Positions 9,186-24,063 are shown, counted from the stretch's first letter. The stretch: DNA of 32,000 bases from Trinickia dinghuensis (GCF_003367175.1 NZ_QRGA01000013.1:32230-64229), one strand, 5' to 3'. Notes: a model not told the origin generated them from the sequence alone. Made by a program: numbers and translations.

Positions 9186-9253
9186 CGCTGCATTTTCGGG
9201 CGTGTGAGCGGTCATCTTTCGTCTGACTTGAAATCTCGATTTTTGGTTGATAA

Positions 9254-9270
9254 TTCGCGTTATGTCAAAT
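9254..9270 (+). repeat. attL core: TTCGCGTTATGTCAAAT
   Basis: Exact 17-bp direct repeat of 19265-19281. The last 11 nt, TTATGTCAAAT, match the E. coli dif XerD arm TTATGTTAAAT at 10 of 11 positions. The 28-mer 9243-9270 reads TTGGTTGATAA-TTCGCG-TTATGTCAAAT. Confidence 0.8.
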
Positions 9271-9561
9271 ATATTGTCCACGCTGCGCCGTGCGATCCGA
9301 GCAGCCAAGACAGCATTTCGCACGGCACCGCTTCGACCGGCAACAAGCTAGCAAGTCCAGCACCTCACGCCTTGAGACGCCTGCAACGAGCAGGCGTTTT
9401 TTTTGAATCGCGATTTTACGATAGACCCGCCGTCTCCGCGCGTCGTGGACGCCCCGCCGCGTGTTACGGATATGCCAGTAGAGATTGCGTATCTCGCCGA
9501 CAACTCGCGCCAGGTCACCCGCTGACAGCGGCTGACGCTCCCATAGTTCTAACTGCACCAT
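9265..9561 (-). CDS. Hypothetical protein (doubtful; possible small DNA-binding protein)
   Basis: 98-aa ORF. The N-terminal third (MVQLELWERQPLSAGDLARVVGEIRNLYW) looks protein-like and is preceded by AAAACGGGGGC containing an SD. The C-terminal two-thirds is Arg/Cys-rich, runs antisense through a plus-strand terminator, and ends inside the att core. Confidence 0.3.
   Translation of the reverse strand: MVQLELWERQPLSAGDLARVVGEIRNLYWHIRNTRRGVHDARRRRVYRKIAIQKKRLLVAGVSRREVLDLLACCRSKRCRAKCCLGCSDRTAQRGQYI
9377..9404 (+). terminator. Rho-independent terminator
   Basis: Perfect 8-bp stem ACGCCTGC / GCAGGCGT with a 5-nt loop (AACGA), followed by T8. No plus-strand gene lies upstream in the integrated state. 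See the finding on the split repressor gene. Confidence 0.6.
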
Positions 9562-9666
9562 CGAGGCCCCCGTTTTTTATTATTAAGTCATTGTTTACGG
9601 CAAATCACGGAAAACTTGAGACCAAGCGGTCACTGATAGAATCGCCGAAAACAAAACGGGGGCTGA

Positions 9667-9945
9667 ATGAAGACCGTAAACAACGACAGACAACGGGGCA
9701 CACCGACCCCAGCGGACCACCGGCGGCCAATCTGGCGGCATCCTGCCTACCTTGGACTTTGGGAGCACTTGCCATACGGACTACAGATCCGACTCATGGA
9801 AATCGAGGGGCGCCTCGACCGCATCTTTCGGCGACGCCTTAAGGTCCACCGGCGCAGCAGACACGTGCTACAGCGCGCTGTCCTGATCGCGCTGATCGGC
9901 GCAGCGGTCCGCGCAATTATTTACCTCTGGCAGAGGCGCTACTAG
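9667..9945 (+). CDS. Hypothetical small protein with a C-terminal hydrophobic segment (doubtful start)
   Basis: 92-aa ORF with the SD-like AAAACGGGGGC upstream. Only the distal half (MEIEGRLDRIFRRRL...AVLIALIGAAVRAIIYLW) has convincing G/C-third-position coding character. It is the only ORF of 60 aa or more in 9562-10139. Confidence 0.3.
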   Translation: MKTVNNDRQRGTPTPADHRRPIWRHPAYLGLWEHLPYGLQIRLMEIEGRLDRIFRRRLKVHRRSRHVLQRAVLIALIGAAVRAIIYLWQRRY

Positions 9946-10139
9946 GCCACACGCGCCGAAGAAAAGCGGCTTTGCAGTGAGGGGGGCCTTGGCTCGACGC
10001 CCGCAGCAACAGCGAGCGGCGCCGGTAATACCCGCTACTCGGTCCGGGAAGTCGCGCTAAGCCGCGCGACAACCGCTACAACTCCGCCTTTAGGCAGTCG
10101 CGCTACCCCTCTGCGACTACCGCCCGGACACTCCTAACG

Positions 10140-10349
10140 CTAGTCGCTTGACAGCTTGCGCTTCGGATCGATTCCGTTTTCTTTAAGAAGCGTCCTAAGC
10201 CGCTGATTATCGCGATACAACAACAAAACACCTATCACCGTCACGGCCGGAAAGAACCACTTGCCGGAATAGTGGAGAATCGCCCACGCCCCAGCGGCAC
10301 ACACAACGCCCGTTGCGAGCAACGCAATTTTGTCGCCGATCCAATTCAT
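10140..10349 (-). CDS. Small two-TM membrane protein (prophage cargo, partner of the 155-aa ORF)
   Basis: 69 aa with two hydrophobic helices (IALLATGVVCAAGAWAIL, FFPAVTVIGVLLLY) and a basic tail. ATGA overlap with the upstream ORF stop (10346-10349). Confidence 0.6.
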   Translation of the reverse strand: MNWIGDKIALLATGVVCAAGAWAILHYSGKWFFPAVTVIGVLLLYRDNQRLRTLLKENGIDPKRKLSSD

Positions 10350-10813
10350 TTCGCGGCCCCGACCTGTAAAGCGCGCATTGCATACGATCTGCGCGCAGGC
10401 ACGTCTGTTAAGACCTCAGGATGGCGCTGCATAAAAATCTGAATGTCCATTGGAACGACCAAACCGCGACTGGCGATCCAACGACCAACGGCACGATAAC
10501 GAGCCGCAGGAGAGTTCCTATAAGTGTCGCTGCACGCCTTCACTGCCTCGGTCGCCACGATCATGCTCCCGAGCGCCGCACCAACGTAGTAAGACACCGC
10601 CATCGCACCGACAGCACCAAGCTTTTCGAGCGCCGTAGTAGCCCCGATAAGCTCTTTGACCGTGGCATCGGGCCCAAGCGCCTTGAGGGCGCCCAGCATC
10701 GTCGTCATCGTACCCAACGCGGTTTGCAACGAGGAAAACAGGCCCGTCGGCGCATCAAGCCCGAGCGACCGCATGTTGTCGTGAAACGCCTTTGAAAAGG
10801 AAACGCAGTCCAT
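10346..10813 (-). CDS. Hypothetical protein with a Gly/Ala-rich hydrophobic helix (prophage cargo)
   Basis: 155 aa with a central GAVGAMAVSYYVGAALGSMIVA segment. I recognise no family. Translationally coupled to the downstream 69-aa membrane protein. Confidence 0.6.
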   Translation of the reverse strand: MDCVSFSKAFHDNMRSLGLDAPTGLFSSLQTALGTMTTMLGALKALGPDATVKELIGATTALEKLGAVGAMAVSYYVGAALGSMIVATEAVKACSDTYRNSPAARYRAVGRWIASRGLVVPMDIQIFMQRHPEVLTDVPARRSYAMRALQVGAAK

Positions 10814-10888
10814 GTAATAGCTCTCTCAGTAGATTGTTATAGCGTCAGACAGCACGCGAATATTACCAGAGCGGCGACATGCGAATTT

Positions 10889-10931
10889 CCCGTTACGCAT
10901 AACGGGATTTCATTTTTCGTTACGCGTAACG
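10889..10931. repeat. Two CGTTAC/GTAACG palindromes flanking the stop codon of the 169-aa ORF
   Basis: CCCGTTACGCATAACGGG (10889-10906, imperfect only at the centre) and the perfect 14-mer CGTTACGCGTAACG (10918-10931, which encodes the last codons VTRN). Confidence 0.8.
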
Positions 10932-11419
10932 TCGTGCTTAAGCAGCGCCTCAAGGCGACCGTTATCACCGTCATTTTGCCAACCGACCGTCAACAAGTAC
11001 CAAAACAGAAGGATGCTATTCGCGTAGCCACGGCAAAGCATGCTCATGTTCGCCTCACCCTTGCTCGCAGCCTTCGATGCTTCCCCCATCTGGTGTCGAA
11101 TCTCGCGCTCGGCCAGCGCCGTAATCTGCCGATACGACCACTTCTTTCCAACCGGTTCGCGAAAAGCTTGGCGCTGCTCACCCAATTCGCGCCTAGCCTG
11201 GGCCAACTCCTCACGAAGCCGGTCGTTTTCGAGCACAAGATCGTCGTAACCGTCGCCAGCAGCCGGAATATTTTTCGTTACGGTAACGGATTCGCCAGCC
11301 GCTTTACGACGAGCACGGAACGCCGCCTGACGCTGTGCGTTCGTCATGGAACCAGACTTAGGCGGACGACCCCGGCCGCGCTTTTCCGTTACTCCGTCTT
11401 GTAACGCAATTTCTTGCAT
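10910..11419 (-). CDS. Putative DNA-binding/regulatory protein of the prophage
   Basis: 169 aa with an N-terminal basic AT-hook-like KRGRGRPPKSG followed by TNAQRQAAFRARRKA and a coiled-coil-like LENDRLREELAQARRELGEQRQ. It has its own sigma70-like promoter with a palindrome in the spacer. The family is not recognised. Confidence 0.65.
   Translation of the reverse strand: MQEIALQDGVTEKRGRGRPPKSGSMTNAQRQAAFRARRKAAGESVTVTKNIPAAGDGYDDLVLENDRLREELAQARRELGEQRQAFREPVGKKWSYRQITALAEREIRHQMGEASKAASKGEANMSMLCRGYANSILLFWYLLTVGWQNDGDNGRLEALLKHDVTRNEK
11276..11288. repeat. CGTTAC-G-GTAACG palindrome inside the 169-aa ORF
   Basis: CGTTACGGTAACG preceded by TTTT, as at 10914 and 11382. Confidence 0.7.
11387..11406. 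repeat. Spaced inverted repeat CGTTAC-N8-GTAACG over the first codons of the 169-aa ORF
   Basis: CGTTAC (11387-11392), spacer TCCGTCTT, GTAACG (11401-11406). Confidence 0.6.
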
Positions 11420-11449
11420 GGCGCCAATCTCCGCATTGGTAATAAGATT

Positions 11450-11478
11450 ATTTTATGTTACGCGTAACGGAAAATCAA
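11450..11478 (-). promoter_or_regulatory. Sigma70-like promoter for the 169-aa ORF with an operator in the spacer
   Basis: The minus strand reads TTGATT (11478-11473), a 17-nt spacer TTCCGTTACGCGTAACA, then TAAAAT (11455-11450). The spacer contains the perfect palindrome GTTACGCGTAAC. GGAG lies 9 nt before the ATG at 11419. Confidence 0.5.
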
Positions 11479-11497
11479 GTATTTACGTTACGTAACG
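11457..11497. repeat. Two perfect palindromes, GTTACGCGTAAC and CGTTACGTAACG, in the secretin/169-aa ORF intergenic region
   Basis: GTTACGCGTAAC at 11457-11468 and CGTTACGTAACG at 11486-11497. The second abuts the secretin stop codon at 11498-11500. Confidence 0.8.
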
Positions 11498-12844
11498 CTA
11501 AATCTTTTGCACCTGAAGGAGCAGCAAGATTTCCGTCTTGCCCGTGGACACCGTATGGCCGGATGCCCAACGCGGCAGGAACGACAAGCCGGAGTTGGCA
11601 TGCGTCGCTTGATCCTGCGTCAAACCGCCTATAAGCAACACGTCGCCATCGGCCAGGCTGAAAGAGCTTTCAACCTTTCGCGTGTTCTTCGTCGGCGAAT
11701 TGTTCACGCCCGTCGTTGTATTCACGAAGCTACTGATTTCCTCGACGAGGTGCAGGTCGATCGCATCGCGCTTCACAACCGGCTTGACCTGAAAAATCAC
11801 GCCCGCGTCCTCGTACTGGATGCTCTGAACCGGCGCCGCCGTTGAACTGGGGTAGGACACGGAGCCAATCACCGGCACCGACTCCCCGACGTTAAGACTC
11901 GCCGTATCGCCCGACGCAACGCGCAAATTCGGCGAGGTTAGGACCTTGAACCTCGAATCGCTGTTCAGCGCCGACAGCGCAGCACTAAAACCGCCCGCGC
12001 TCAGCCTGATCGCGTTATCGGTTGACTTGATGCTGCCGATGTTCAGCGAAGCCCCTAGACGCCCGCCTAGGATGCTCAACGCGAGTTGAAACGCCGAGTT
12101 GTTATCCGACGTATCCGTCACCTCATACACCCACGCGCGCACCGCGACATTGCTAACCGGCGTGTCGAGCTGCGGCAATAGCTTTTTCAACATCGCCACT
12201 TCACCGGCCGAGCCAACGAACACGAGTTCATCGGCCGACTGATCGACAAGGCTTGCCGCCGACGTCGCGGGCACATCGCTCGCCACCTTGGCACCTTCCG
12301 GCGCCGACACGGGCCGATTCTCGGTAAAGCGGCCGCTGAACAGCGGTCCCACGATGCGCGACAGATAGTCAGCATCCCGATACCTCGGCGAATACACGAA
12401 TGTCTGCCGGTCGCTTTCATCGTTTGCGTGATCCGACTTAGATACGTACGTCACCCCACCGCGAACCGTCACCGAGTAGCCCAGCGACCCCAGGAAATCA
12501 GACAGGAACGAGCGCACGTCACCCTGTGCCTTGTCGAAGCGAAACGACACCGGCCGCGTATCCGTCAACACGTCAGGATCGAGGACATACGGCGCGTGAA
12601 GCAAATCCGCATAGATCAGGTCTACGACTTGTGCGACGGGCACAAAGCGCAGATCGATACGAGAGCCTGTAAAGCGCGGAAGCGCCGACATGATCGGGCG
12701 ATCAGGGGCCTTTGCGACGGGCACGCTCGCCGACGTCTGAACCATCCCCGGAGGAAGCGGAGGAAAACCCGGACTGCCGACCGACATATCCGATGCTCGA
12801 GCAACGCACGACACCCAAAGAAGGAGCAACGCGAACCGTTTCAT
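11498..12844 (-). CDS. Phage-encoded secretin (pIV-like, GspD/PulD family)
   Basis: Start at the internal ATG 12844 (MKRFALLLLWVSCVARA signal peptide), which forms an ATGA overlap with the Zot stop. The C-terminal secretin core reads FKVLTSPNLRVASGDTASLNVGESVPV...IQYEDAGVIFQVKP...VLLIGGLTQDQ. Confidence 0.9.
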   Translation of the reverse strand: MKRFALLLLWVSCVARASDMSVGSPGFPPLPPGMVQTSASVPVAKAPDRPIMSALPRFTGSRIDLRFVPVAQVVDLIYADLLHAPYVLDPDVLTDTRPVSFRFDKAQGDVRSFLSDFLGSLGYSVTVRGGVTYVSKSDHANDESDRQTFVYSPRYRDADYLSRIVGPLFSGRFTENRPVSAPEGAKVASDVPATSAASLVDQSADELVFVGSAGEVAMLKKLLPQLDTPVSNVAVRAWVYEVTDTSDNNSAFQLALSILGGRLGASLNIGSIKSTDNAIRLSAGGFSAALSALNSDSRFKVLTSPNLRVASGDTASLNVGESVPVIGSVSYPSSTAAPVQSIQYEDAGVIFQVKPVVKRDAIDLHLVEEISSFVNTTTGVNNSPTKNTRKVESSFSLADGDVLLIGGLTQDQATHANSGLSFLPRWASGHTVSTGKTEILLLLQVQKI

Positions 12845-13941
12845 TTCGCGCCCCCGAGCAGAGATTTCGACGACGGCGCCAAACCACCGACCTGGCCGGA
12901 CCACTCGGCCACACGATCACCTTCGATCATACCCACACGCTCTAAGCCGTTGCCCATGAACTCAGACGGCGACTCAGCCCTCAACCGGCCATCGCCATTA
13001 GCGAGCAGCACATACGACCGGCCATCGACGCTATAGGCACCTGCAACACGCCACGTAGACGAGGTTTGCGGCGCCTTATCACCGCCGGTCGATACCGCCG
13101 AGGCAGGGACCGCACCAGCCGCGCTCGCATGCCCGTTATGCGCCGCGACTTCACGCGCAGCAGCAGCCGTCCGGCTATGAAAGAAGCGCACGGCAAACCA
13201 CAGCCCGACGGCACCGAGCAGCAACACCGCGCCGACCAGAAACCAAAGCGACTTTCGCGCAAGAACGTTTTGCCGAGCGTCTACCGCACTCTCCTTGCCA
13301 GACGCGCCCGCATAGCTCTTGTACAGCGGAAAAATCTCAGCCTTGTACTTACGAACAAACGTGCCCGTTCTGTTGCCGGCCGTTTGCTTCCACGTCTCGT
13401 ACATTTCGACCCGGTAGGTCTTCGCCAGCCCGAGGCTCTTGAGCTTGACCATGCGAAACGACAACTCGACGACCGCCTTAATCGAGCGATGCAGATCGGC
13501 AATGGTCTGGATCATGAGCACCACGTCGCACGCAACACCCGTTTCTTCATGCACGAAGTGCCGATGCATCCGGAAGAACGCCATGTGTTCTTTCGAGATT
13601 TTTTGATCGGTGGCCCATAGCTTCCATGCTTCGTCGATCACGAGCAGATCGCCCGGTAGAACGAAGCCAGGCGTAACGGTAGCGCCCCCGGCTCCCTCGA
13701 CCTCGACCGGGAAAAAGCCGTCCTGTTTCAGGTCATCGGTGCGCACATGGACGATGCGACCAAGCCGAGCAAGCGGAACGTTCCGCTTTTCGTGCACGTA
13801 GGCGTGTATCAGATCTTCGTTGACACCATCGACGTTCGTCACGACTCGGCGACCGGCCGCAACAGCATCGAGCAATGGACCCGACACCACCTCGTACGAC
13901 TTGCCCGAACCCATCACGCCGCAGTAAGCATTAATTGACAT
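12841..13941 (-). CDS. zot: Zot-like assembly ATPase (pI homologue)
   Basis: Start at ATG 13941 gives MSINAYCGVMGSGKSYEVV (Walker A). Walker B is LLVIDEAW. A TM segment (LWFLVGAVLLLGAVGLWFAV) follows the ATPase domain, as in the Zot/pI family. Confidence 0.9.
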   Translation of the reverse strand: MSINAYCGVMGSGKSYEVVSGPLLDAVAAGRRVVTNVDGVNEDLIHAYVHEKRNVPLARLGRIVHVRTDDLKQDGFFPVEVEGAGGATVTPGFVLPGDLLVIDEAWKLWATDQKISKEHMAFFRMHRHFVHEETGVACDVVLMIQTIADLHRSIKAVVELSFRMVKLKSLGLAKTYRVEMYETWKQTAGNRTGTFVRKYKAEIFPLYKSYAGASGKESAVDARQNVLARKSLWFLVGAVLLLGAVGLWFAVRFFHSRTAAAAREVAAHNGHASAAGAVPASAVSTGGDKAPQTSSTWRVAGAYSVDGRSYVLLANGDGRLRAESPSEFMGNGLERVGMIEGDRVAEWSGQVGGLAPSSKSLLGGAK

Positions 13942-14033
13942 CTTCCGGTCCCTGGCGAAACCAACGCACCGCAAAACGTGCCCACACCGCGAGCACGAGC
14001 ACGACAACGGACACCGCTAGCGGCCCCACGGCA

Positions 14034-14327
14034 TCACCCAATAACCGGTATGCGCCGGATGATGAAGCGCGTAGCGAACGCTGCGACGATCGCGGGCGCC
14101 CCGTAGCTAAACCCGAACAGATCGAGGAAGTACCACACGTCGGAACCGACGCCACCGAACGCCCCGGCAAGCGATGCCGCACTCGGCAAAATGCCAGCAC
14201 TTTGCAGCACAGAGATAAATTCGGTCGTCACGAACCACATGGCGAAGTACGCAAAAAACTTCGCGATGATCGAGCGAAAGACGAAGCCGAGAACGACGTT
14301 AAACGCGCTAAGCAGAATGCCGAACAT
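14034..14327 (-). CDS. pVI-like minor coat/membrane protein (DUF2523-like)
   Basis: 97 aa, highly hydrophobic (MFGILLSAFNVVLGFVFRSIIAKFFAYFAMWFV...). GAGGTG RBS. Its position between the pIII-like and Zot genes is the conserved inovirus position. Confidence 0.7.
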   Translation of the reverse strand: MFGILLSAFNVVLGFVFRSIIAKFFAYFAMWFVTTEFISVLQSAGILPSAASLAGAFGGVGSDVWYFLDLFGFSYGAPAIVAAFATRFIIRRIPVIG

Positions 14328-14338
14328 GATCAGTCACC

Positions 14339-15709
14339 TCACGCCGTCAAGACGACCAACAGGGCCGCAACCGTGAATGCAGCGACAAAGAACCCGTGTA
14401 TCTCATCGCGGTTTTGCTCTAGCAGATCGCACTGCGACGTGAACGTGTACGTCTCGCCCCACAGCTGGAACGAAGGCTCCGGGCACGCCGACGTATGAGC
14501 AGGCACCGCCCACGAGCGCAGATCAGGCAACAAGCCCAGAATGGGCGCAAGGATTTGCGCAGCCGTGGGCGTCGCTTCCAACCCAGGCGCACCGATACCC
14601 GGATCCGGGCCAAGGTTGATTTCGGCACCACTGCCCGGATTGGTCGCAACTGGGACCGACGAAGCCGGGTTCGACGTGGACGGAACCGACGTAGCGAACG
14701 GCGCAGAACTACTCGCACCCGACAAGCTACCGGCGCCACTCACCGCGCTACCGACAGTTGGCGCAGACGTGCCAAGTTGATCCTCGACGGACGACGCCTC
14801 ACCGGCCGTCGCAGGAGCGTTCACGGGGAAAGGAAGGCCCGCGTAGCCCTCGCCCTGGGCCGCTTGGCCCCACAGTGCATTGACCGTCGCCGCAAGCACT
14901 TGCGCATTCAACACGTCGGGATCGTCAGCCGCAGGCGTAGCAGCCGCAGCAGCCATCACGGATTCAGTCACCGGCGGAGGCGGACTATAGGACGCGCACG
15001 AGCCATTGACGATGATCCCCGACGAGCACGCATTGCCGGACCAAGCACCAGTGCCGCTACTCGTCACGTTCTGGACGTCCGTTTCCTGTCCTCCCTGCGG
15101 AAGCGTAATGTCGAAACTACACGAGCCAGATGACGAGCTACCCACAACCCACGTATAGCCATTAGTACCGTTCTCCTTCTGTGCAAACGCCTGACATGCG
15201 GCAGCGACCGACGAACCGCACGCAGAACCGGGGCCGGTCTCGGTGTTATTCCCAACGCAAAAATACTGCTGCGGAGCGGCTAACGCGGGATAGGGCGACG
15301 AACCACCAGCCCCGGAAACCGTAACCGATCCATCACTATTCGACTGCCACTGCTGAAGCGACCCGTTACCCAACGACGTCGGCACCGCGAGCAATGCACC
15401 ACCGGCAGCGACCGCCGCTACCGCAATCCACGGCACCGCCCCGACAGCGATTCCCGCACCGGCCGCTATCGTCGCAGCAGCAGCCGCAGCAGCCTCACCA
15501 ATGGCCGCAACCGTCTCGGCGATACGCGGATCGGCCGGAGAGAAGCCGTTAGCCGCGGCGACCGCAGCGACCACGCCACCAATCGCCATACCCATCGACG
15601 GATACGACGTTGAGGAAGACGCCGCATAGACGACACGCGGAGGCGCCCACACCAAAGCGCCATAGAGCAGCGCGGCCCCGCAGAACGCGGACAATCGAAA
15701 CCGTTGCAT
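14339..15709 (-). CDS. pIII-like adsorption/minor coat protein
   Basis: Start at ATG 15709 (GGGGGTGAG RBS) gives the signal peptide MQRFRLSAFCGAALLYGALVWAPPRVVYA/A. The protein has Gly/Ser/Ala-rich linkers, Cys-containing globular segments and a C-terminal anchor FFVAAFTVAALLVVLTA. It sits immediately after the major coat gene. Confidence 0.7.
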   Translation of the reverse strand: MQRFRLSAFCGAALLYGALVWAPPRVVYAASSSTSYPSMGMAIGGVVAAVAAANGFSPADPRIAETVAAIGEAAAAAAATIAAGAGIAVGAVPWIAVAAVAAGGALLAVPTSLGNGSLQQWQSNSDGSVTVSGAGGSSPYPALAAPQQYFCVGNNTETGPGSACGSSVAAACQAFAQKENGTNGYTWVVGSSSSGSCSFDITLPQGGQETDVQNVTSSGTGAWSGNACSSGIIVNGSCASYSPPPPVTESVMAAAAATPAADDPDVLNAQVLAATVNALWGQAAQGEGYAGLPFPVNAPATAGEASSVEDQLGTSAPTVGSAVSGAGSLSGASSSAPFATSVPSTSNPASSVPVATNPGSGAEINLGPDPGIGAPGLEATPTAAQILAPILGLLPDLRSWAVPAHTSACPEPSFQLWGETYTFTSQCDLLEQNRDEIHGFFVAAFTVAALLVVLTA

Positions 15710-15819
15710 GCTCACCCCCGCATACCTTGAACGACCGCCCAGGCTGACAACAGCCCCCATGCGAACATCGCCAAATACCACGCAGTGTTTGCGTCGATCA
15801 TCACCACCCCCGCCTCAAG

Positions 15820-15847
15820 AAAAAAGGGCGAGCACCAGGCCCGCCCC
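15820..15847 (-). terminator. Weak rho-independent terminator after the major coat gene
   Basis: The minus strand shows GGGCG...CGCCC (5-bp stem, 11-nt loop) followed by T6, about 24 nt downstream of the coat stop. The position matches the post-gVIII terminator of Ff-type phages. Confidence 0.4.
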
Positions 15848-15870
15848 ACCCAAGCGAAGCACCGCGACCG

Positions 15871-16128
15871 CTACGCGCTCCGGATCATACGAAGGACGAT
15901 CTTCGCGCCCTTGATCGCGACGTACAGCAGCACGAGCGAAGCAGCCACCGCCATCACCGCCGTGATCGTCGTCGAAAAACTCACCGACGAAGTCAGGCTC
16001 GTGTAGTCGACGCCGGACGCCTGCGCGTGCGACACCAACGGCGTAGCCGAAACGGCAGCGACCACAGGAGCCGCCGCAACACGCAGCGCCTTCGAAACAC
16101 CCGCACCCATCTTTTGCAGCAAACGCAT
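15871..16128 (-). CDS. Major coat protein (pVIII-like)
   Basis: ATG 16128 with AGGAG 5 nt upstream. Signal peptide MRLLQKMGAGVSKALRVAAAPVVAAVSATPLVSHA/Q. The 50-aa mature part has an acidic/polar N-terminus (QASGVDYTSL), a hydrophobic core (ITAVMAVAASLVLLYVAI) and a basic C-terminus (KGAKIVLRMIRSA). Confidence 0.8.
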   Translation of the reverse strand: MRLLQKMGAGVSKALRVAAAPVVAAVSATPLVSHAQASGVDYTSLTSSVSFSTTITAVMAVAASLVLLYVAIKGAKIVLRMIRSA

Positions 16129-16173
16129 ATGCACTCCTAGCAAGAGAAACCGGGAAGCGCCCGGCTCGCATCA

Positions 16174-16458
16174 CTACCCCCGCCGAATGAATTCGACGAG
16201 CGCACCAATCCCGCGTGTTACGAAATACAGCCCGACAACAAAACAAAATGCGAGGCCCCAAAATCCGGCCGCTTGCGTGTAGTCAAACGGTGTTGTTTCC
16301 GCCGAGTTATCGACAAGCGCCATGTGCATGACACCAAGCGTTCCTTGCGTGCCATCGCTCGCGGTGCAAGCCACCGAATGACCGCTTATCCCGACCGCGC
16401 CTACGCCAGACGCGCCAGAACTACTCACGCACGCCGCTACATCGATACCCAGGCTCAT
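16174..16458 (-). CDS. Small membrane protein (possible minor coat protein)
   Basis: 94 aa with a C-terminal coat-like layout DNSAETTPFDYTQAAGFWGLAFCFVVGLYFVTRGIGALVEFIRRG. ATGA overlap with the upstream small ORF. Confidence 0.6.
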   Translation of the reverse strand: MSLGIDVAACVSSSGASGVGAVGISGHSVACTASDGTQGTLGVMHMALVDNSAETTPFDYTQAAGFWGLAFCFVVGLYFVTRGIGALVEFIRRG

Positions 16459-16607
16459 TGATCGACGCCTCCACGATCCGCACCACGCTTAGCACCGCGC
16501 ATGACCAGCGAAACGACACCGAGGACACAGCCGACAACGCCCACCATCGTCAGCGCCACCAAGCAGTCGGCGATAAGATCGAGCACATCAAACGGACAAC
16601 TCAGCAT
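16455..16607 (-). CDS. 50-aa single-TM protein (possible pVII/pIX analogue), absent from the ORF track
   Basis: The minus strand reads ATG at 16607 preceded by GGGGGAGG. Translation: MLSCPFDVLDLIADCLVALTMVGVVGCVLGVVSLVMRGAKRGADRGGVDQ*. Its stop overlaps the next start (ATGA at 16455-16458). Confidence 0.5.
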   Translation of the reverse strand: MLSCPFDVLDLIADCLVALTMVGVVGCVLGVVSLVMRGAKRGADRGGVDQ

Positions 16608-16616
16608 CGCCTCCCC

Positions 16617-16823
16617 CTAGTGCAGCATCCGGCCCACGAACACGACCGGAACCACATCGAACGGACCATCGCAGTGATCGACCCCGGCTTGCGTCGCTTC
16701 TTCCGCATCGCTGAACCCGCCCGCCTCACGAAACCGACACGTAAAGCCCACGTCGCCATCGACCGGACACAGGAACTCGCCGCTCGACAAGTCCTGAACC
16801 ACGTACACCACGGCCCCGCTCAC
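16617..16823 (-). CDS. Hypothetical small acidic protein
   Basis: 68 aa. It starts 2 nt after the stop of the pV-like gene and has good G/C third-position bias. No family recognised. Confidence 0.5.
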   Translation of the reverse strand: MSGAVVYVVQDLSSGEFLCPVDGDVGFTCRFREAGGFSDAEEATQAGVDHCDGPFDVVPVVFVGRMLH

Positions 16824-16825
16824 GA

Positions 16826-17137
16826 TCAGCCCTTAGGAGAAGCCGCCGAAACCTTCGTCGGCTTGAGGGCGTTCATCACCGTCTTCTGGGTCTTGCCGTT
16901 CGTGACGATTTCGAACTCGGCGACGGCCTCAAACGGAAACGGCAAGTGCTTGTATTTCTGGAACTCTTCAGCCGCACCGAGCGTGAACTCGCCGACCGCA
17001 AAGCCCTTCGCCGTGCCCTTCGACTCATCGAGGGGCGTCTCGGTGTAGACCTTCGTGCTATCGAACGTCTGGCCGTTGTCCATCGTGCCCTTGCTCGCCT
17101 TCATGCCCAGCACCTTCACGTTGCTTTCGAACTTCAT
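16826..17137 (-). CDS. Putative ssDNA-binding protein (pV-like)
   Basis: Internal ATG 17137 with GGGAG 6 nt upstream gives 103 aa, MKFESNVKVLGMKASKGTMDNGQTFDSTKVYTETPLDE.... The beta-rich composition and the position directly after rep fit pV analogues. Its start overlaps the last 80 nt of rep. Confidence 0.5.
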   Translation of the reverse strand: MKFESNVKVLGMKASKGTMDNGQTFDSTKVYTETPLDESKGTAKGFAVGEFTLGAAEEFQKYKHLPFPFEAVAEFEIVTNGKTQKTVMNALKPTKVSAASPKG

Positions 17138-18407
17138 TGCTTGCTCCCGTGTAATCCATGGCCGGATGAAAGACCGCGTCCTCTGCCCAGCCGTCATCAG
17201 AGGGGTCTAAATCGTTGAATGCACACGGTGTCGCGCGCTGATGTACTGGCGACTCGCACACTTCGTAATCGGGAACCTTGAGCCGTTCGGGCCACTCGCC
17301 GGACGTGCTTGTGATTGCTTCGAGAAGCGCCTCGTCGCCGATCAGCGGACGCAGCACAGCGAAATACTTGCCGTACGAAATGCGGATGTTCTTAACGCTC
17401 GCATCGACGTTGATCTCAGCGGCTTTGCGCTTGACCTCGACACGTTGCGGTGTGCGCGCTTGCTCAAAGAAGCGCAGGCACGGATAGGCGCCCACGAAAT
17501 AGCCGGATGGATCGAGCAGCACATCGAGCGGAATCACGCGCTTGTCGTTGCGTAGCTCAACCTCGAAGCGCACCCACGGCGACGTTTCGTCACCCTGTTC
17601 CATGCCCTTTTCGTAGACGCGGCACATCTTCCCGTTCTTGCGTCGGCCGACGTACAAGCTCCGGCCCTTGCCGCTCGGGTTGCGCCAGTCGCCGCGATGC
17701 TCGTGACTAGGGGCACGCCCAGAGCACGAGAACAGCCCGTCGTCATACCAGTCGTCTGCCTGATCGACCGTGTATTCGCCTTCCATGCAGTCATGCGCCA
17801 GGTCTACCCGCGTGATCGTCGGACGGCCGGCCGTCTGTGAGAGAAAGTCGTAGAGCCGACCCTCCCAGCCCGGTTTGGCCGCAAGGCAACCGTGCCCCGT
17901 CAGGTTCACGAGCATCGTTCCACGTTGGCTCGATCCGCCGATAGCGACGTAGCCGTACGCGTCGCCTAGCTCCCACGCGCTCAAGTAAAAATCGCGTTTG
18001 ACTTGCAGGTCCTTCGTAACGCCGAAGCCGAAAATCTCCGTCAGCACCTGGCTTGCTTCACACACAAATTCGTCATCGCCGACCAGTTGCCGACCCGCCG
18101 TCTTGCAGAACGTCTGCTCGCTGACCGTGAAGCGCAGCGTATCGATCATCGCCACCTGATCGCCGCAGGGAACCCGGACCGCAATCGTCTTGATCTCGCC
18201 CGATTCGGTAACGACGATCTGCAACCGTTCCAGCTTCGCGAGCGTCGCTCTGTTCGTATCCCCCCTGTTAGTACGGGGGGGGCATTCGCGCGGAGCGCCG
18301 CCGCGTCCGTCCTCGACGCTCCGGGCGGGCGCGGCGTCGCGCCTTGCGGTAGGGCGATTAGGACTCCTAAGAGTCTCCGAAATGGCAGCGTTCTTGAGTT
18401 TGCCCAT
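17058..18407 (-). CDS. Rolling-circle replication initiation protein (Rep_trans / RstA-like)
   Basis: 449 aa. IDTLRFTV, TRVDLAHDC and GRSLYVGRRKNGKMCRVYEKG...WVRFEVELRN match my memory of the Rep_trans signature found in CTXphi RstA and RSS/Cf-type phages. The N-terminal 60 aa or so is low complexity, so the true start could be downstream. Confidence 0.85.
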   Translation of the reverse strand: MGKLKNAAISETLRSPNRPTARRDAAPARSVEDGRGGAPRECPPRTNRGDTNRATLAKLERLQIVVTESGEIKTIAVRVPCGDQVAMIDTLRFTVSEQTFCKTAGRQLVGDDEFVCEASQVLTEIFGFGVTKDLQVKRDFYLSAWELGDAYGYVAIGGSSQRGTMLVNLTGHGCLAAKPGWEGRLYDFLSQTAGRPTITRVDLAHDCMEGEYTVDQADDWYDDGLFSCSGRAPSHEHRGDWRNPSGKGRSLYVGRRKNGKMCRVYEKGMEQGDETSPWVRFEVELRNDKRVIPLDVLLDPSGYFVGAYPCLRFFEQARTPQRVEVKRKAAEINVDASVKNIRISYGKYFAVLRPLIGDEALLEAITSTSGEWPERLKVPDYEVCESPVHQRATPCAFNDLDPSDDGWAEDAVFHPAMDYTGASNEVRKQREGAGHEGEQGHDGQRPDVR

Positions 18408-18410
18408 GGC

Positions 18411-18581
18411 TTAGGCGTTGACTTCGACGGGAACGAGGGTCAACCGATTCGGCTGACGACCTTGGCGATAGAGAGCAGCACGAGCTTTGTCTCGTGCCTT
18501 GATGACGGTTCGCGCACGGACCTCGACCGTTGCGATGAGCGTACCGTGCACCGTGTACGCGTGGACTCGATATGCAGACAC
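18411..18581 (-). CDS. Possible 56-aa ORF upstream of rep (GTG start), absent from the ORF track
   Basis: The minus strand has GTG at 18581 with GGGG 6-8 nt upstream and an in-frame TAG two codons before it. Translation: (M)SAYRVHAYTVHGTLIATVEVRARTVIKARDKARAALYRQGRQPNRLTLVPVEVNA*. The TAA lies 3 nt before the rep ATG. Confidence 0.35.
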   Translation of the reverse strand: MSAYRVHAYTVHGTLIATVEVRARTVIKARDKARAALYRQGRQPNRLTLVPVEVNA

Positions 18582-18793
18582 AGCTACCCCGTTCGGTTGA
18601 TCGTTCTGTTACCGGCGGCCCGCCGGTTGGCTTTTACCGAAGCTGCAAGCGCTACGCTTCCCCTCGAAAAGTGGGCGGCTGGACTAGCCCGCCCCGAGTA
18701 GCCGTGCTCCGAGGGGAGAGGCCGCACGGCTCGGCCACCTGGCGACGGCGGTTTACCTTTTCGCCGAAGCTGATAGACTGCGCCTTGCCGAGT

Positions 18794-18849
18794 AGCCGTG
18801 AACATTCACGGCTCACCGTGAGCCGGAATATTTCACGGCTTGCCGTGAA
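18794..18849. promoter_or_regulatory. Operator-like palindromes in the repressor/rep switch region
   Basis: AGCCGTGAA-CA-TTCACGGCT (18794-18813), GCTCAC-C-GTGAGC (18811-18823) and TTCACGGC-TT-GCCGTGAA (18832-18849), all within 75 nt upstream of the repressor ATG at 18868. The half-site GCCGTGAA occurs in both orientations. Confidence 0.5.
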
Positions 18850-18867
18850 CTGTCAAGGGGAAATCGT

Positions 18868-19323
18868 ATGGACATTGCAGAACTTCTCGACGCAGCGAAG
18901 CGCAAGAAAAAGACGCTAGGCGCAGTCGCGGACGGCCTTGGCGTACATCAAAACCGGCTCTCAGAATGGCGCAAAGGCACGTACAAGCCGGATGCGACGA
19001 CGATCGCTCAGCTTGCGGAAATGGCCGAATTACCAATATTTGAGACAGTCGCCCAAGTAGAGGCTTCGCTCGACCACAGCCAAGCAGCTGCGGTATGGGA
19101 GCGCGCCTTGGGAAAGCTCCGCGCGGCCGGGGTAGCCGCGACCGTGATCCTTGGACTCGCGATTTATTCGATGACGCCTAAAAATGCGTCGGCTGCTGTC
19201 ACAAATTTTGTGACGCCCTCGCCCGTCGAAGCCGCAACAGCGCTGAAAACTGGCCCCAACAGTGTTCGCGTTATGTCAAATCACATAAACCAGTCTTCAT
19301 CGACTGGACCATCTCCACCGTGA
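18868..19323 (+). CDS. XRE/Cro-CI-type HTH repressor-like protein with a C-terminal hydrophobic segment (3' end altered by integration)
   Basis: AGGGGA RBS. HTH KKTLGAVADGLGVHQNRLSEWRKGTYKPD. Hydrophobic stretch AAGVAATVILGLAIYSM. The ORF crosses attR (19265-19281) and ends in flanking chromosomal DNA. Confidence 0.8.
   Translation: MDIAELLDAAKRKKKTLGAVADGLGVHQNRLSEWRKGTYKPDATTIAQLAEMAELPIFETVAQVEASLDHSQAAAVWERALGKLRAAGVAATVILGLAIYSMTPKNASAAVTNFVTPSPVEAATALKTGPNSVRVMSNHINQSSSTGPSPP
19265..19281 (+). repeat. attR core: TTCGCGTTATGTCAAAT
   Basis: Exact 17-bp direct repeat of 9254-9270. The 11 nt to its left (CCCCAACAGTG) do not resemble a XerC arm. Confidence 0.8.
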
Positions 19324-19528
19324 TGAGCTTCGGGGCCGGCTTGTCAGGAATCCGCGTGGTGGTAATGATGATGTCCGCATCTCTCGTCTGCTAATTCATA
19401 ACAGCAAAAAAGCGGGCCGCGCATGACTCGAACCAACGGCACGACCGCGCCCTTGACGCGAAAGGAATTCCGAAAAAATTAGGTCATAATCGTGGCTCCT
19501 CCGAGCAACCGATGAGTACGCGCAGCAC

Positions 19529-21463
19529 ATGGCCTTCAGCGAACCGGGATCAGCACTTTTCAAGTGGGTAGCGTCGTCGGTGCCGGGCCTGAGCGCCACC
19601 AATCGGCAAGCCCTGCTCGCCAATCTGTTCACCCGCACGCCGGAGATCCTTTTCGCGGCGATTTGCGAAGTCAGTGTCGCAGCAACGGCCTGCTACCGGC
19701 ATCGAACGCCGCTGTACGGGTATTGGATCGCCGCCATCCTCGCGTTACTGGCGACACGACTGACGTTGATTTGCGCTTGCCGTCGGCGCGCAGCATCCGA
19801 TCAGCCGACGTTCACGTCGGCCTATTTGTTCGCAAGCATCCTGTGGAGCGCACTCTTCGGTTTCGGCGCCTTTCTTTGCAACACGAGTGGCGACCCCACC
19901 CTCTTCCTGCTGGGGAACGTGTGCGCAGTCGGCGTCATCGGCGGCCTGGCCGGGCGCAATGCCGGTACGCCCCGCCTTGCAATGGTCCAGATCTCTCTCA
20001 TTCTCGGCCTGCTCGGCTTAGGCGCGGCGTTATCGCCCGGCGAAGGCAAAATCATATTGCTCTTTCAAGCGCCTTTTTGCGCGGCGGGCTTTTTTTCGGT
20101 CGCGCTGCGCAGCAATCGCGACACCGTAAGTTTGCTAAAAGCGCGTGAACACAGCCATCACCTCGCGGTACACGACAGCCTCACCGGCCTGCCCAATCGC
20201 GCCCGTATCAATGAGCTACTGCTCGAGCGAACCGAAGCCAGCGAAACGCGCAAGACGTCATCCTTTGCGCTGCTTTTGATCGATCTCGATGGCTTCAAAG
20301 CCATCAATGACAGCCTGGGTCACGCCGCGGGGGACCGCATCCTGCAGGAAGCAGCGGGCCGCCTAAGCGAAATGTTCGCGCACAACGACCTGGTTGGGCG
20401 TTTGGCCGGCGACGAGTTCGTTGCGATCTGCGACGGTGTTTTTTCGGAGAACATCGCAAACTCCATGGCAGCGAGAATCGTCAAGCAATTGTCGCAGCCT
20501 TTCGTATTGCCGGAAGGCACCGTACACATTGGCGCCAGCGTCGGCATATCGTTGTACCCCGACCATGCGAACACGGGTCCTGAGCTTCTAATCTGCGCCG
20601 ACCGCGCGCTGTACGCAGTGAAACGTGGCGGCAAAAGAGCGTTCGCCGTCTTCGACGCCAACGAGCACGCTTTCGACGAAAGCCTGAGTTTGCTACGCAG
20701 CGACCTGGAGGGTGCGCTTCAATCGTTCTCGGGCCTGCGAATGGAGTATCAATCGATCATCGCGCTTCATGATGGATCCATCTCCGGCCGCGAAGCGCTT
20801 CTTCGTTGGAAGCATCCGGTTCGTGGCGAGCTGTCGCCCGCCGCGTTTATTCCGATCGCCGAACGTACAGGCTTGATCGTCGCATTGGGCGAATGGGTGC
20901 TGCGGCAATCATGCGCGGATGCAATGACCTGGCGCGATGCGGCAACGCTGTCCGTCAATGTTTCGCCCGTGCAGCTCCAAGAGGATTCGTTCGCGTCGAC
21001 AGTCGCTGCGATTCTGCAGCAGACGAATTTTCCCGTGCAGCGCTTGTACATCGAGGTAACCGAGACGGTATTTCTCGCTGACGATGTCAGAACCCGCCGG
21101 AACCTGACGAAGCTTCGGGACATGGGCATTGGATTGGTCCTCGACGACTTCGGCGCGGGCTTTTCGACGATGTCCACCCTCGTCCGCTTCTCTTTTGACC
21201 GCATCAAGATCGATGGGTCGTTCGTCAAGGAGGCCTTGCACTCGGAGAAGGCAGCCGCGGCAGTTCGGGCCATTGTGTCGGTGGCGCGCGATATGGGCAT
21301 GCCGACCACGGCCGAGGCTGTCGAGACGCATCAGCAACTCGAATTTGTGCGCGCGTGCGGATGCACGTATGTGCAGGGCTTCCTTCTCGGTCTACCGGCC
21401 CGAGCCGAATCGATCGCGTGCATTGATGCCGCGGCACCGGATGCGACTGTGGCAACTCGATGA
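19529..21463 (+). CDS. Membrane-anchored GGDEF-EAL (c-di-GMP turnover) protein
   Basis: 644 aa with an N-terminal multi-TM region. The GGDEF domain shows HDSLTGLPNR and RLAGDEFVAI. The EAL domain shows EALLRWKHP, YIEVTE and LVLDDFGAG. The start codon is uncertain. Confidence 0.9.
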   Translation: MAFSEPGSALFKWVASSVPGLSATNRQALLANLFTRTPEILFAAICEVSVAATACYRHRTPLYGYWIAAILALLATRLTLICACRRRAASDQPTFTSAYLFASILWSALFGFGAFLCNTSGDPTLFLLGNVCAVGVIGGLAGRNAGTPRLAMVQISLILGLLGLGAALSPGEGKIILLFQAPFCAAGFFSVALRSNRDTVSLLKAREHSHHLAVHDSLTGLPNRARINELLLERTEASETRKTSSFALLLIDLDGFKAINDSLGHAAGDRILQEAAGRLSEMFAHNDLVGRLAGDEFVAICDGVFSENIANSMAARIVKQLSQPFVLPEGTVHIGASVGISLYPDHANTGPELLICADRALYAVKRGGKRAFAVFDANEHAFDESLSLLRSDLEGALQSFSGLRMEYQSIIALHDGSISGREALLRWKHPVRGELSPAAFIPIAERTGLIVALGEWVLRQSCADAMTWRDAATLSVNVSPVQLQEDSFASTVAAILQQTNFPVQRLYIEVTETVFLADDVRTRRNLTKLRDMGIGLVLDDFGAGFSTMSTLVRFSFDRIKIDGSFVKEALHSEKAAAAVRAIVSVARDMGMPTTAEAVETHQQLEFVRACGCTYVQGFLLGLPARAESIACIDAAAPDATVATR

Positions 21464-21594
21464 AAGCCGTTTCCGAACAATGGCTTATCCGCTCAGCGAA
21501 GCGCAAACCCACAGCTTTATCAACAGATTCTGTGGATAACCGCGCGGCTCAAACCAAGTTGCGATATCAGTGAGTGCCGGAAGGGGTAAATGCG

Positions 21595-22764
21595 CTACCG
21601 CTTCGACTTTGCCCTCGGCTTTTCGGCGAGCGCTTCCCGCAGGTGACCTGCCGTCGTTTGCCTAATCCACTCGGCGTACGCCTCGTCTTCTATGCGGTAG
21701 CGTCCGCGCTCAAGCCGTGTCACTACATTCCCGTCCTGGAGTCTTCGCAAGGCGTGGCTAACTGTGCTCGGTGTGGTCGGGCTGCCGGCAAGCGTGCTGA
21801 GATACCGAAGCCCCGCAACCGAATGCAGGTCCGAATCGCCACTCGCGACCAAAATGAGCACCGCCCGATCAGCAGCACCGGAGCCGGTCCACTGCCTCAG
21901 GAAGTGTTGATCGGAGAACACGGTCGCTTTCGTGTGTTCTAGCGCAGCATCGACACCCTCGAGCTGGTAAAGCACGAATCGCTCGATAAACCGCTTAAAG
22001 AACTCCGGCGTCCGGTGCAGTGCTTCGAACGCACGCTTGCCGTCCGTCAGCGTCAAGGTGTTCCGTGCAAGGCTGTTGGTCAATTCCACGGTGAACGCAA
22101 CAAACTCGTCGCCAAGCAGCGGAAACGGTTCTAGGGGCGCCCAGTTATAGAACGGCTCCGAAGAGCGGGCAAACATATCCCGCAGCGTTGTTTCCGAGCT
22201 ACCGGCAAACACCACCTTGATGCGGTCTTTGCGGATGTCTAGCGCTGCCCGAAGGGCATGAGCGAATACGCTGTGCACTTCCTTCGCAAGCACCTGCGCT
22301 TCGTCGATGACGAGAATCAACGGCTTCTTCTGACGATCGAGCTGGCGCAGTACCTCCCGCATCGTTGCGGCGCTGTCCGCGTCGAGTTGCGCCAAATCTG
22401 CCTCGATCGAGCCTTCCGCCAAGCCAGGCAGCTTCGCGCTCGCCTTGAGTTTTTTGACTGGCTTTCCCAACGCGGTCATCACCGCCCGGAACCCTCGCGG
22501 TTCGAGCGCCTGGGCCAAGGCAGAGACAATCGCAATGTCCGGCGTGCTCGTGTCCCAAAGATTCGTATAGGCGACCAGGTATTCCTTCTCGACTGCAGCC
22601 GGCAGCAGATCCTTGCACAGAAATTCGGTCTTACCCATCCTGCGGCGCGCGAATAGCCCCCGCGCCGCAGTCAGGCCAAGCGCGAATGCATTCAAATAGG
22701 CTTCCGCCAACTTAGGCCGGGCAAAGTGCCACGCATCGACGGCCGTTTTCTCGTGAATTCTCAT
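21595..22764 (-). CDS. Orphan ATP-binding protein (archaeal-type AAA ATPase fold with a C-terminal wHTH)
   Basis: P-loop-like ARRRMGKTEF, Walker B LILVIDEAQ and a C-terminal wHTH-like TVSHALRRLQDGNVVTRLERGRYRI. The track start at 22767 is GTG and the adjacent ATG is at 22764. Confidence 0.8.
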   Translation of the reverse strand: MRIHEKTAVDAWHFARPKLAEAYLNAFALGLTAARGLFARRRMGKTEFLCKDLLPAAVEKEYLVAYTNLWDTSTPDIAIVSALAQALEPRGFRAVMTALGKPVKKLKASAKLPGLAEGSIEADLAQLDADSAATMREVLRQLDRQKKPLILVIDEAQVLAKEVHSVFAHALRAALDIRKDRIKVVFAGSSETTLRDMFARSSEPFYNWAPLEPFPLLGDEFVAFTVELTNSLARNTLTLTDGKRAFEALHRTPEFFKRFIERFVLYQLEGVDAALEHTKATVFSDQHFLRQWTGSGAADRAVLILVASGDSDLHSVAGLRYLSTLAGSPTTPSTVSHALRRLQDGNVVTRLERGRYRIEDEAYAEWIRQTTAGHLREALAEKPRAKSKR

Positions 22765-22815
22765 CACATTTGGGAATTCTCAAATCTCGTGGGAATTCAT
22801 GATACAACAGCTCAC
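22735..22815 (+). repeat. 81-bp direct repeat, copy 1 (covers the ATPase start and upstream region)
   Basis: Aligns with 23881-23961 with about 10 mismatches. It contains three GAATTC-centred dyads at 22755, 22774 and 22793, spaced 19 bp apart. Confidence 0.8.
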
Positions 22816-23023
22816 AGCAGCATGAACGAGATAGCTGAAACACAGTTGAACATCCGCACGAGTACAGCCTGCCGATCACATGATCACAGGCCCGGATGCG
22901 CGGGTGGCGGCCGCCATGATGCCCGACCCGCCAGAGCCGTACATCGACTAGAACTGCACCACGTTGACGCGCAAATAGTGACCGTACAAAATGCGCGGTC
23001 CTTATCTCCGTCTGCGCAATTCC

Positions 23024-23881: not shown

Positions 23882-23961
23882 TCGACGGCAGTTTTCTCAT
23901 GAATTCTCATCACCCTTGAGAATTCTCAAACCCTGTGAGAATTCATGATACAAAAGCTCAC
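23881..23961 (+). repeat. 81-bp direct repeat, copy 2 (carries a truncated duplicate of the ATPase 5' end)
   Basis: Its minus strand reads GTG ATG AGA ATT CAT GAG AAA ACT GCC GTC GAT CAA TGA, giving (M)MRIHEKTAVDQ*. This reproduces the first 10 or so codons of the ATPase. GAATTC dyads lie at 23901, 23920 and 23939, including the perfect TTGAGAATTCTCAA. Confidence 0.8.
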
Positions 23962-24026
23962 GAAACCGGCCTTGGCGCCGCTGTCAGCACATGCGTCTGC
24001 GCGTGGTAGCACGTGTTATATGATGC

Positions 24027-24051
24027 TATAATTGATGCAACTTGGCATCAA
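24027..24051 (+). promoter_or_regulatory. Candidate vapBC promoter -10 element and operator
   Basis: Extended -10 TGCTATAAT (TATAAT at 24027-24032) overlaps the 7-bp inverted repeat TTGATGC (24032-24038) / GCATCAA (24045-24051). This lies just upstream of the GGAG RBS and the vapB ATG at 24064. Confidence 0.4.
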
Positions 24052-24063
24052 GCTGGAGTCGAA

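Follow-up and report, generated by a model that had tools for sequence, protein, structure and literature searches.

The window analysed here is a stretch of 32,000 nucleotides from Trinickia dinghuensis (GCF_003367175.1, NZ_QRGA01000013.1:32230-64229). Positions 9254-19281 very probably hold one copy of an Inoviridae-like filamentous phage genome integrated at dif on a replicon of Paraburkholderia type, probably chromosome 2. At the level of sequence, our analysis confirmed a complete-looking and intact-looking filamentous prophage that carries its own secretin. This is the identity put forward in an initial annotation made from the DNA alone, and it is borne out by hidden Markov model (HMM) matches and by full-length alignment of all core genes to relatives. 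A Xer-dependent mechanism of integration was absent from that annotation because the repeat at the boundaries was not recognized as a dif half-site. Its gene list also lacked the plus-strand helix-turn-helix (HTH) repressor (18868-19323) and a 2.2-kb accessory region (o169, o155, o69, o92 and o98).

Element boundaries and the dif site

The element is delimited by a perfect 17-bp direct repeat, TTCGCGTTATGTCAAAT, whose two copies (9254-9270 and 19265-19281) lie 10,011 bp apart, start to start. The chance expectation for this repeat, with up to 3 mismatches allowed, is 0.02, and 2 matches were observed. The limits first assigned to the prophage, 9254 and 19281, coincide exactly with the outer edges of the repeat. 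The published dif site of Burkholderia mallei chromosome 2 is AATGTCGATAA-TTTGCG-TTATGTCAAAT, that of chromosome 1 is AATGTCGATAA-TTGATA-TTATGTCAAAT, and that of Ralstonia solanacearum is CCATCGCATAA-TTTATC-TTATGTTAAAT (Carnoy and Roten, PMC2731167). Since the left attachment site (attL, Table 1) closely matches the B. mallei chromosome 2 sequence, the repeat corresponds to the 6-bp central region and the 11-bp XerD arm of dif. The attL sequence is a complete dif of chromosome-2 type.

The 22-mer GATAATTCGCGTTATGTCAAAT recurs exactly in five other Paraburkholderia/Trinickia genomes, and the identity reaches 25 bp in all five (GTTGATAATTCGCGTTATGTCAAAT; GTTGATAA...). The flanks of these five sites are unrelated, contain no phage genes and have no flank gene in common with the window; in two of them an OprB porin gene borders the 25-mer on one side and FAD oxidoreductase genes on the other. 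Three other Paraburkholderia genomes (L002, ~2790-2840; L003, ~6120-6170; and L005) share a conserved stretch of about 40 bp (TTGAACTTAGC.AAAAGCGGACATTAC...) immediately left of the unoccupied dif; this stretch could be left over from a different dif-associated element or act as an accessory sequence of dif.

At the opposite boundary, attR is a hybrid site in which the core is preceded by a non-canonical arm derived from the phage, a layout also found in four relatives (L029, L026, L020 and L008). The XerD arm of the phage attachment site (attP) is identical to that of dif at 11 of 11 positions, and the XerC arm is the degenerate one. The predicted junction of the circular form is CCCCAACAGTG-TTCGCGTTATGTCAAAT-ATATTGTCC, or in longer form ...GGCCCCAACAGTG-TTCGCGTTATGTCAAAT-ATATTGTCCACGC... 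Domain searches of every open reading frame (ORF) between the repeats detected no integrase, resolvase or transposase, and tblastn searches of the window with the resolvase and integrases of relatives returned nothing. Given a repeat that is a dif half-site and the lack of a recombinase, the element is best read as an integrative mobile element that exploits Xer (IMEX).

Integration at a tRNA gene was ruled out, as the window contains zero tRNA genes. The element was initially described as lower in G+C than its surroundings; there is a drop, but a modest, one-sided one (0.599 within the element, against 0.635 on the left and 0.607 on the right). GC skew changes sign locally, from +0.038 left of the element to -0.039 right of it.

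The gene complement

The order of genes and their placement on the minus strand had been correctly laid out from o56 through the secretin, and our gene calls agree. The genes run from replication through structural to assembly functions, an order recovered in nearly all of 13 related loci from IMG/VR and in five further relatives inspected in genomic context. The Zot, Rep_trans, secretin and DUF2523 models, whose use the initial annotation had suggested, all matched in Pfam. The coat model fared unevenly: a virion structural family of PHROGs was clearly matched, but Pfam Phage_Coat_B remained below its curated cut-off (values in Table 1). Overlaps between core genes are conserved, including 80 nt between rep and the pV-position gene and the ATGA shared by zot and the secretin gene.

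Table 1. Features of the prophage and its attachment sites, in window coordinates.
Feature	Position	Strand	Evidence and remarks
attL, reconstituted canonical 28-bp dif	9243-9270	+	TTGGTTGATAA (host XerC arm)-TTCGCG-TTATGTCAAAT (XerD arm); 17-bp core 9254-9270
o98, 98 aa	9265-9561	-	phrog_27692 3.9e-38; TGA stop inside XerD arm
Terminator after rebuilt repressor stop	9374-9400	+	No other obvious client
Imperfect hairpin	9566-9687		DNA fold of 9555-9700, z = -3.3; candidate packaging signal or origin
o92 ORF	9667-9945	+	Homologues in L013, L015, L020, L026
o155 + o69 cargo pair	10140-10813	-	ATGA overlap; o155 helical with Gly/Ala-rich hydrophobic core; o69 small membrane protein
o169, basic protein	10910-11419	-	phrog_10506, phrog_9651, phrog_23279, all function unassigned; homologue in T. 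soli L029
pIV-type secretin, 448 aa	11498-12844	-	Signal peptide MKRFALLLLWVSCVARA; Pfam Secretin 1.7e-22; phrog_1012 'protein IV of M13' 1.2e-114
Zot/pI assembly ATPase	12841-13941	-	Pfam Zot 7.6e-29; phrog_197 Zot-like 1.9e-73
pVI-like minor coat protein (DUF2523), 97 aa	14034-14327	-	Pfam DUF2523 1e-5; phrog_974 1.3e-22
pIII-like adsorption/minor coat protein, 456 aa	14339-15709	-	phrog_7187 3.2e-68; phrog_3942 2.3e-36
Intrinsic terminator behind coat gene	15847-15825	-	
Major coat protein (pVIII analogue)	15871-16128	-	phrog_2186 virion structural protein 4.3e-21; Phage_Coat_B 0.006, sub-threshold
Three small ORFs, 68, 50 and 94 aa	16174-16823	-	Position of pVII/pIX-type minor virion proteins
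pV-position gene, 103 aa, presumed single-stranded DNA (ssDNA)-binding protein	16826-17137	-	phrog_4994 (function unassigned) 1.6e-33; overlaps rep 3' end
Rep, rolling-circle initiator (pII analogue, Rep_trans/NicK type)	17058-18407	-	Pfam Rep_trans 1e-29; phrog_453 replication initiation 2.7e-94
o56, small conserved phage protein upstream of rep	18411-18581	-	phrog_12374 2.1e-22; 64-84% identical in relatives
Divergent regulatory region	18582-18867		Repeated GAGTAGCCGTG / CACGGCT motifs, putative operator candidates
Sigma-70-like promoter for rep operon	18856-18827	-	Scores 10/12, with TG
Repressor, N-terminal HTH_3 + hydrophobic helix	18868-19323	+	Pfam HTH_3 6.5e-6; phrog_638 transcriptional regulator 6.4e-24; weak RstR-family match
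attR, hybrid site inside repressor ORF 3' end	19254-19281	+	Phage-derived left arm CCCCAACAGTG + core TTCGCGTTATGTCAAAT (19265-19281)

The replication initiator Rep is 57-78% identical across the 13 IMG/VR loci and full-length in most of them. The next gene had been called pV-like, and its position and size fit that description. Its protein matched no Pfam family, PDB sequence, known gene V protein or Dulem virus 'helix-destabilising protein', so that the assignment as pV is made by position and size. Both the location of this gene and its overlap with rep are kept in relatives. The three small ORFs that follow are, from where they lie, candidates for pVII/pIX-type minor virion proteins. Those of 68 and 94 aa are conserved in relatives and o94 has weak PHROG matches; searches of o50 and o68 against Pfam, NCBIfam and PHROGs returned nothing.

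The major coat protein consists of a signal peptide (cut ...SHA|QASG) and a single 50-aa mature helix, exactly the structure first described for it. The pIII-like protein has a signal peptide, Gly/Ser/Ala-rich linkers and a C-terminal anchor, matches no Pfam family, and is encoded by the most divergent gene among relatives (28-57% identity). The Zot protein carries a Walker A motif (GVMGSGKS) and one transmembrane helix.

The secretin and its distribution

The ATG of the secretin gene overlaps the TGA of zot, as the initial annotation had noted, and the secretin lies within the attachment repeats. Its matches in the PDB are chains of GspD together with pIV of phage f1 (7OFH, E = 6.4e-12, aligned to 7OFH residues 146-382), and the Secretin_N domain is weakly matched (0.0076, Pfam). 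Homologues at E<=1e-10 form 638 protein clusters, and homologues align over 100% of the 448-aa form. The best 120 of these 638 are 47-82% identical, are mostly annotated as GspD, and were found in Burkholderia, Paraburkholderia, Trinickia, Pandoraea, Caballeronia and Ralstonia insidiosa. In every relative whose context was inspected, the secretin adjoins zot inside a prophage.

A phage-encoded secretin in an integrating phage had been singled out as unusual. For this host group the claim fails, given the 638 secretin clusters, the 13 IMG/VR loci and a Paraburkholderia tuberum prophage published in 2023. The element belongs to a known, catalogued family, because secretin-encoding inoviruses are already present in IMG/VR and in the literature (PMC10011098). 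As a phage it consequently adds little, secretin-encoding integrated inoviruses being common in Burkholderiaceae. It is modestly useful as a clean instance, delimited in full (10,011 bp with exact attL and attR), of a member of this phage family that uses dif and not a resolvase or integrase.

A proposed mechanism

By analogy with the IMEX paradigm (PMC6744903, PMC12715192), we infer that integration depends on Xer. Host XerC and XerD would recombine the double-stranded replicative form, at attP, with dif. This reaction would regenerate a canonical dif at attL and leave at attR a hybrid in which the XerC arm is non-canonical, and identity of the central region would decide which dif is used. 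In the lysogen the repressor would silence the rep operon. On induction, Rep would nick the DNA, and rolling-circle replication would give ssDNA, which would be coated by the product of the gene in the gene V position and extruded through a complex of Zot/pI and secretin, gaining coat proteins there. With zot and the translationally coupled pIV secretin, the phage can build its own channel across the cell envelope, and the virion would leave through the phage secretin. Having an export channel of its own, such a phage could be produced in a wider range of hosts.

Weighing alternative readings

Several points weigh against an IMEX at the dif of chromosome 2. The replicon assignment, which is probable, rests on one published Burkholderia dif and on local skew in a 32-kb window. 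A comparison with an empty attB, proposed in the initial annotation, found no syntenic empty site by way of orthologues of the flanking GGDEF-EAL gene; the three related genomes with such an orthologue showed non-syntenic contexts devoid of dif. (Homologues of the flanks pointed to Paraburkholderia as the host; the GGDEF-EAL protein itself is 84% identical to that of Paraburkholderia sp. JHI869.) Furthermore, the phage-side arm does not resemble a XerC-binding arm, which leaves recruitment of XerC unexplained, and the attP junction pattern had zero matches in IMG/VR and in metagenome contigs. The dissimilar arm, together with three proteins of unassigned function (o169, o155 and o98), could be taken as a sign that a phage recombinase that was not recognized, such as o169 or o98, integrates the element and that the resemblance to dif is incidental. 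We consider this very improbable. The central region and the XerD arm together account exactly for the repeat, and the full canonical Burkholderia-type dif formed by attL is kept in other genomes. Among relatives, four other central regions are matched and the XerD arm stays the same, which is the signature of Xer targeting, and a resolvase or tyrosine integrase gene is obvious in relatives that use other sites. None of the unassigned ORFs has the catalytic motifs or the domains of a recombinase, and o98 is a helical protein of 98 aa.

Whether the phage is functional is a separate matter. The element would be a cryptic or domesticated remnant if it were phage-derived DNA that can no longer replicate, excise or form virions and is kept for its cargo or secretin. 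The public data searched (IMG/VR and metagenome contigs) yielded no free or circular form, integration has altered the C-terminal tail of the repressor, and the nearest relatives are only 70-80% identical in DNA, for which reason the recency of integration cannot be judged. We nevertheless regard a remnant as unlikely. All 11 core genes are full-length relative to their counterparts, with overlaps conserved; both attachment cores are perfect; the promoter, the post-coat terminator and the repressor are intact; and no insertion sequence or frameshift was seen, in accord with the intact module initially described. Virtually no weight attaches to a third possibility, that secretin and zot form a host secretion or pilus locus with unrelated neighbours. 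Homologues of the secretin do carry the public annotation 'type II secretion system protein GspD', and NCBIfam GspD is its best match there, yet far under the cut-off (110 bits vs 351). The locus lacks other genes for type II secretion or type IV pili, the top PHROG family is pIV of M13 (1e-114), the unit is enclosed by attachment repeats, and the order of Rep_trans, coat, pIII, pVI and Zot around the secretin is kept in every relative inspected.

Relatives and exchange of lysogeny modules

A whole-element DNA search against GenBank phages gave no match, and among deposited phages the nearest are inoviruses from gut metagenomes, with ~35% protein identity. Scanning IMG/VR with Rep recovered the 13 viral contigs mentioned above, nearly all in the order repressor (-), o56, rep, pV, o68, o94, coat, pIII, pVI, zot and secretin. 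This one module is joined to three alternative lysogeny modules. The dif type comprises the prophages of Trinickia soli (L029) and P. tuberum (L026) together with L020 and L030-32; the serine-resolvase type lies beside serS and comprises B. pseudomallei prophages (L027/28) and L009, L013, L014, L015 and L018; the tyrosine-integrase type comprises L007, L017 and L019. Relatives thus show the lysogeny module swapped among otherwise colinear phages.

The 17-mers that flank dif-type relatives keep the XerD arm TTATGTCAAAT and differ in their central regions (TTGAGA in L029, ATTACA in L026 and TTTATC in L020), and L008 has a single TTCATG copy in the 3' end of its repressor gene. In flanked relatives, the phage's own central region is duplicated at both ends and a host-type ...GATAA XerC arm is found at one end only. 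These differing central regions match different dif sites, which suggests that, in a multipartite genome, the choice of target replicon is made by matching of the central region. L030 has an attP-type junction flanked by the repressor gene's 3' end and an o98 homologue, the arrangement predicted for the circular form.

Some loci hold more than one element or a different combination of modules. On an ENA metagenome scaffold (L030, 9986-20468), the o155 cassette occurs at both ends of a secretin inovirus of REP_ORF2 type, and the attP-type junction GGCGGGGAGTG-TTGAGA-TTATGTCAAAT lies at ~11150-11171; the locus resembles inoviruses arrayed in tandem at dif. Immediately past the dif-flanked prophage of L020, the opposite strand carries another zot-secretin pair, a divergent one (11504-13101), which suggests two different inoviruses stacked at one dif. 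The closest two secretins with genome context (L006 and L007, ~78% identical) belong to prophages with a REP_ORF2-G2P initiator placed behind the secretin. Since this initiator differs, replication modules are shuffled independently of the assembly module. Just behind the secretin, L027 (11400-12154) and L016 (10276-10764) encode a Tlde1-domain protein, of the L,D-transpeptidase effector family of type VI secretion, with a small downstream gene. This hot spot of B. pseudomallei-type relatives is occupied in the window by o169, o155 and o69.

Comparison with known systems

The closest full-length relative found is the prophage of T. soli LMG 24076 (L029), for which we found no publication as a phage. 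It is colinear over ~9.7 kb at 68-79% DNA identity, contains o169, o155, o69 and o98, and is flanked by dif-type 17-bp repeats. It differs in its central region (TTGAGA, as in a chromosome 1-like dif), in a pIII of 422 aa and in extra genes past the end equivalent to attL.

Integrated filamentous prophages with pIV secretins have been described in P. tuberum WSM4176 and Cupriavidus STM 6070 (PMC10011098). The WSM4176 prophage encodes a NicK/Rep_trans pII, a lambda-repressor-like protein and pIV (PMC10011098). Like the window element, it has a divergent lambda/Xre-like repressor gene followed by pII, small proteins, coat, pIII, pVI (97 aa), Zot and pIV. The P. tuberum assembly (L026) is 64-75% identical in DNA over most of the genome and also has a 17-bp flanking repeat of central region plus XerD arm. 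Its central region is ATTACA and not TTCGCG, and a different dif is therefore targeted. Its pIII is divergent and its cargo between secretin and attP differs from the o169, o155 and o69 of the window. The text of PMC10011098 makes no mention of the integration site.

Ralstonia phages of the phiRSS type (phiRSS0, RSS30) share integration by host XerC/D at dif, an attachment core made of the central region and XerD arm, attP within a reverse-oriented repressor gene (ORF13; PMC4471427 for phiRSS0) and an o98 homologue that converges on ORF13. Unlike the window element, their genomes are 6-8.6 kb and their structural genes only distantly related. The RSS genomes gave no match to the window secretin, and these phages therefore presumably use a host secretin. 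The same paper mentions a B. pseudomallei prophage with an RSM-type integration unit (PMC4471427). The B. pseudomallei prophage with a phiRSM-type resolvase unit shares the Rep_trans-Zot-secretin module, with a secretin 65% identical and DNA identity of 68-81% in blocks; it differs in its serine resolvase, in integration beside serS, in the absence of o98 and dif repeats and in its Tlde1-domain cargo.

As in the window element, a Zot/pI-family ATPase gene adjoins a pIV-type secretin gene in the Ff phages (f1/M13/fd), but sequence identity is very low. The Ff phages are episomal and non-integrating, and their initiator belongs to pfam05144, not Rep_trans.

Vibrio TLC/'CTX-I' and Xanthomonas XacF1/Cf phages rely on host secretins, and the attachment core of XacF1/Cf has a degenerate XerD arm. 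Similarities to the window element include the absence of a recombinase, a repressor at one end of the prophage, a small regulator-like gene (XafT) beside attP at the other, and hypervariable cargo between the assembly genes and the gene adjoining attP; mimicry of a 17-bp half-site has been described as well. TLC differs in that its XerD arm is degenerate and its accessory protein has DUF3653; here the XerD arm is perfect and the XerC arm degenerate. A degenerate XerD arm has been reported for TLC and for the gonococcal genetic island (PMC6744903), and attP of XacF1 lies inside the regulator gene ORF12, which is split on integration (PMC5666396). The cited IMEX and XacF1 papers make no mention of a phage secretin for TLC/'CTX-I' and XacF1/Cf.

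Repressor and regulatory region

The repressor gene is transcribed divergently from the rep operon, and in the prophage its last 14 codons are host-derived. Joining 19281 to 9271 rebuilds the repressor of the circular form, with an ORF that runs through 9271-9351; integration therefore replaces only the C-terminal tail of the repressor. The plus-strand terminator at 9374-9400 would make sense only for this circular-form gene. Repressors of the phage family have an N-terminal HTH, a conserved C-terminal hydrophobic helix (LRAAGVAATVILGLAIYSM) and a motif NFVTPSP. This composition suggests a membrane-anchored repressor, which would be unusual among phage repressors.

The accessory region and o98

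The accessory region (9271-11497), between the secretin gene and the left end, contains o169, o155/o69, o92, a hairpin and o98. All six independent dif-type phages examined encode the last of these, among them Ralstonia RSS30, in which the homologue converges on ORF13; the ten relatives with a resolvase or tyrosine integrase instead lack it. It is 64-74% identical in all dif-type relatives and in the Ralstonia RSS phages, where it lies beside ORF13. The protein is Cys-rich, with an invariant CC-x4-C-x4-C-x2-C motif, and its AlphaFold model is a 4-helix bundle (predicted local distance difference test score, pLDDT, 75) that has no significant fold match in the PDB (best E 1.2). A relationship to XafT/DUF3653 was rejected, as neither o98 nor its homologues match DUF3653 even at E<=10; no other ORF of the element matches this domain.

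These patterns flag o98, which may be a Xer accessory factor, as a candidate for that role in beta-proteobacterial IMEXs, which are devoid of XafT. We advance only tentatively, and hold as rather doubtful, the broader idea that a repressor 3' end, an attP with no recognizable XerC arm and a convergent o98 together define an uncharacterized class of Xer exploiters, in which o98 would be an activation or directionality factor of Xer unrelated to DUF3653/XafT. The linkage of o98 and attP could equally be passive, given a stop codon in the XerD arm and a 3' end antisense to the repressor tail.

At 10885-11469 a palindromic 20-mer (ATTTTTCGTTACGCGTAACG) occurs in four copies, 75-100% identical, which bracket and enter the o169 gene and look like operator sites of an autoregulated DNA-binding protein. 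The o155/o69 pair belongs to a hypothetical family restricted to Burkholderiaceae and is shared by the Rep_trans-type prophage of T. soli (L029, 10001-10674) and secretin inoviruses of REP_ORF2-G2P type (L030-32; L030, 10001-10674). The two genes could form a toxin/immunity pair or serve in exclusion. Searches matched them to no family or fold: Pfam, NCBIfam and PHROGs returned nothing for o155, o69 or o92, and the predicted structure of o155 (pLDDT 56) was too poor to use. The interval 9940-10140 has no significant ssDNA structure (z = +0.57).

Beyond attR, the right flank (19282-25000) is also low in G+C (0.592 vs 0.62-0.64 elsewhere). It contains the GGDEF-EAL gene, whose orthologues are non-syntenic in relatives, and an AAA/KAP-like ATPase gene (21595-22767), and this DNA in the terminus region was probably also acquired horizontally.

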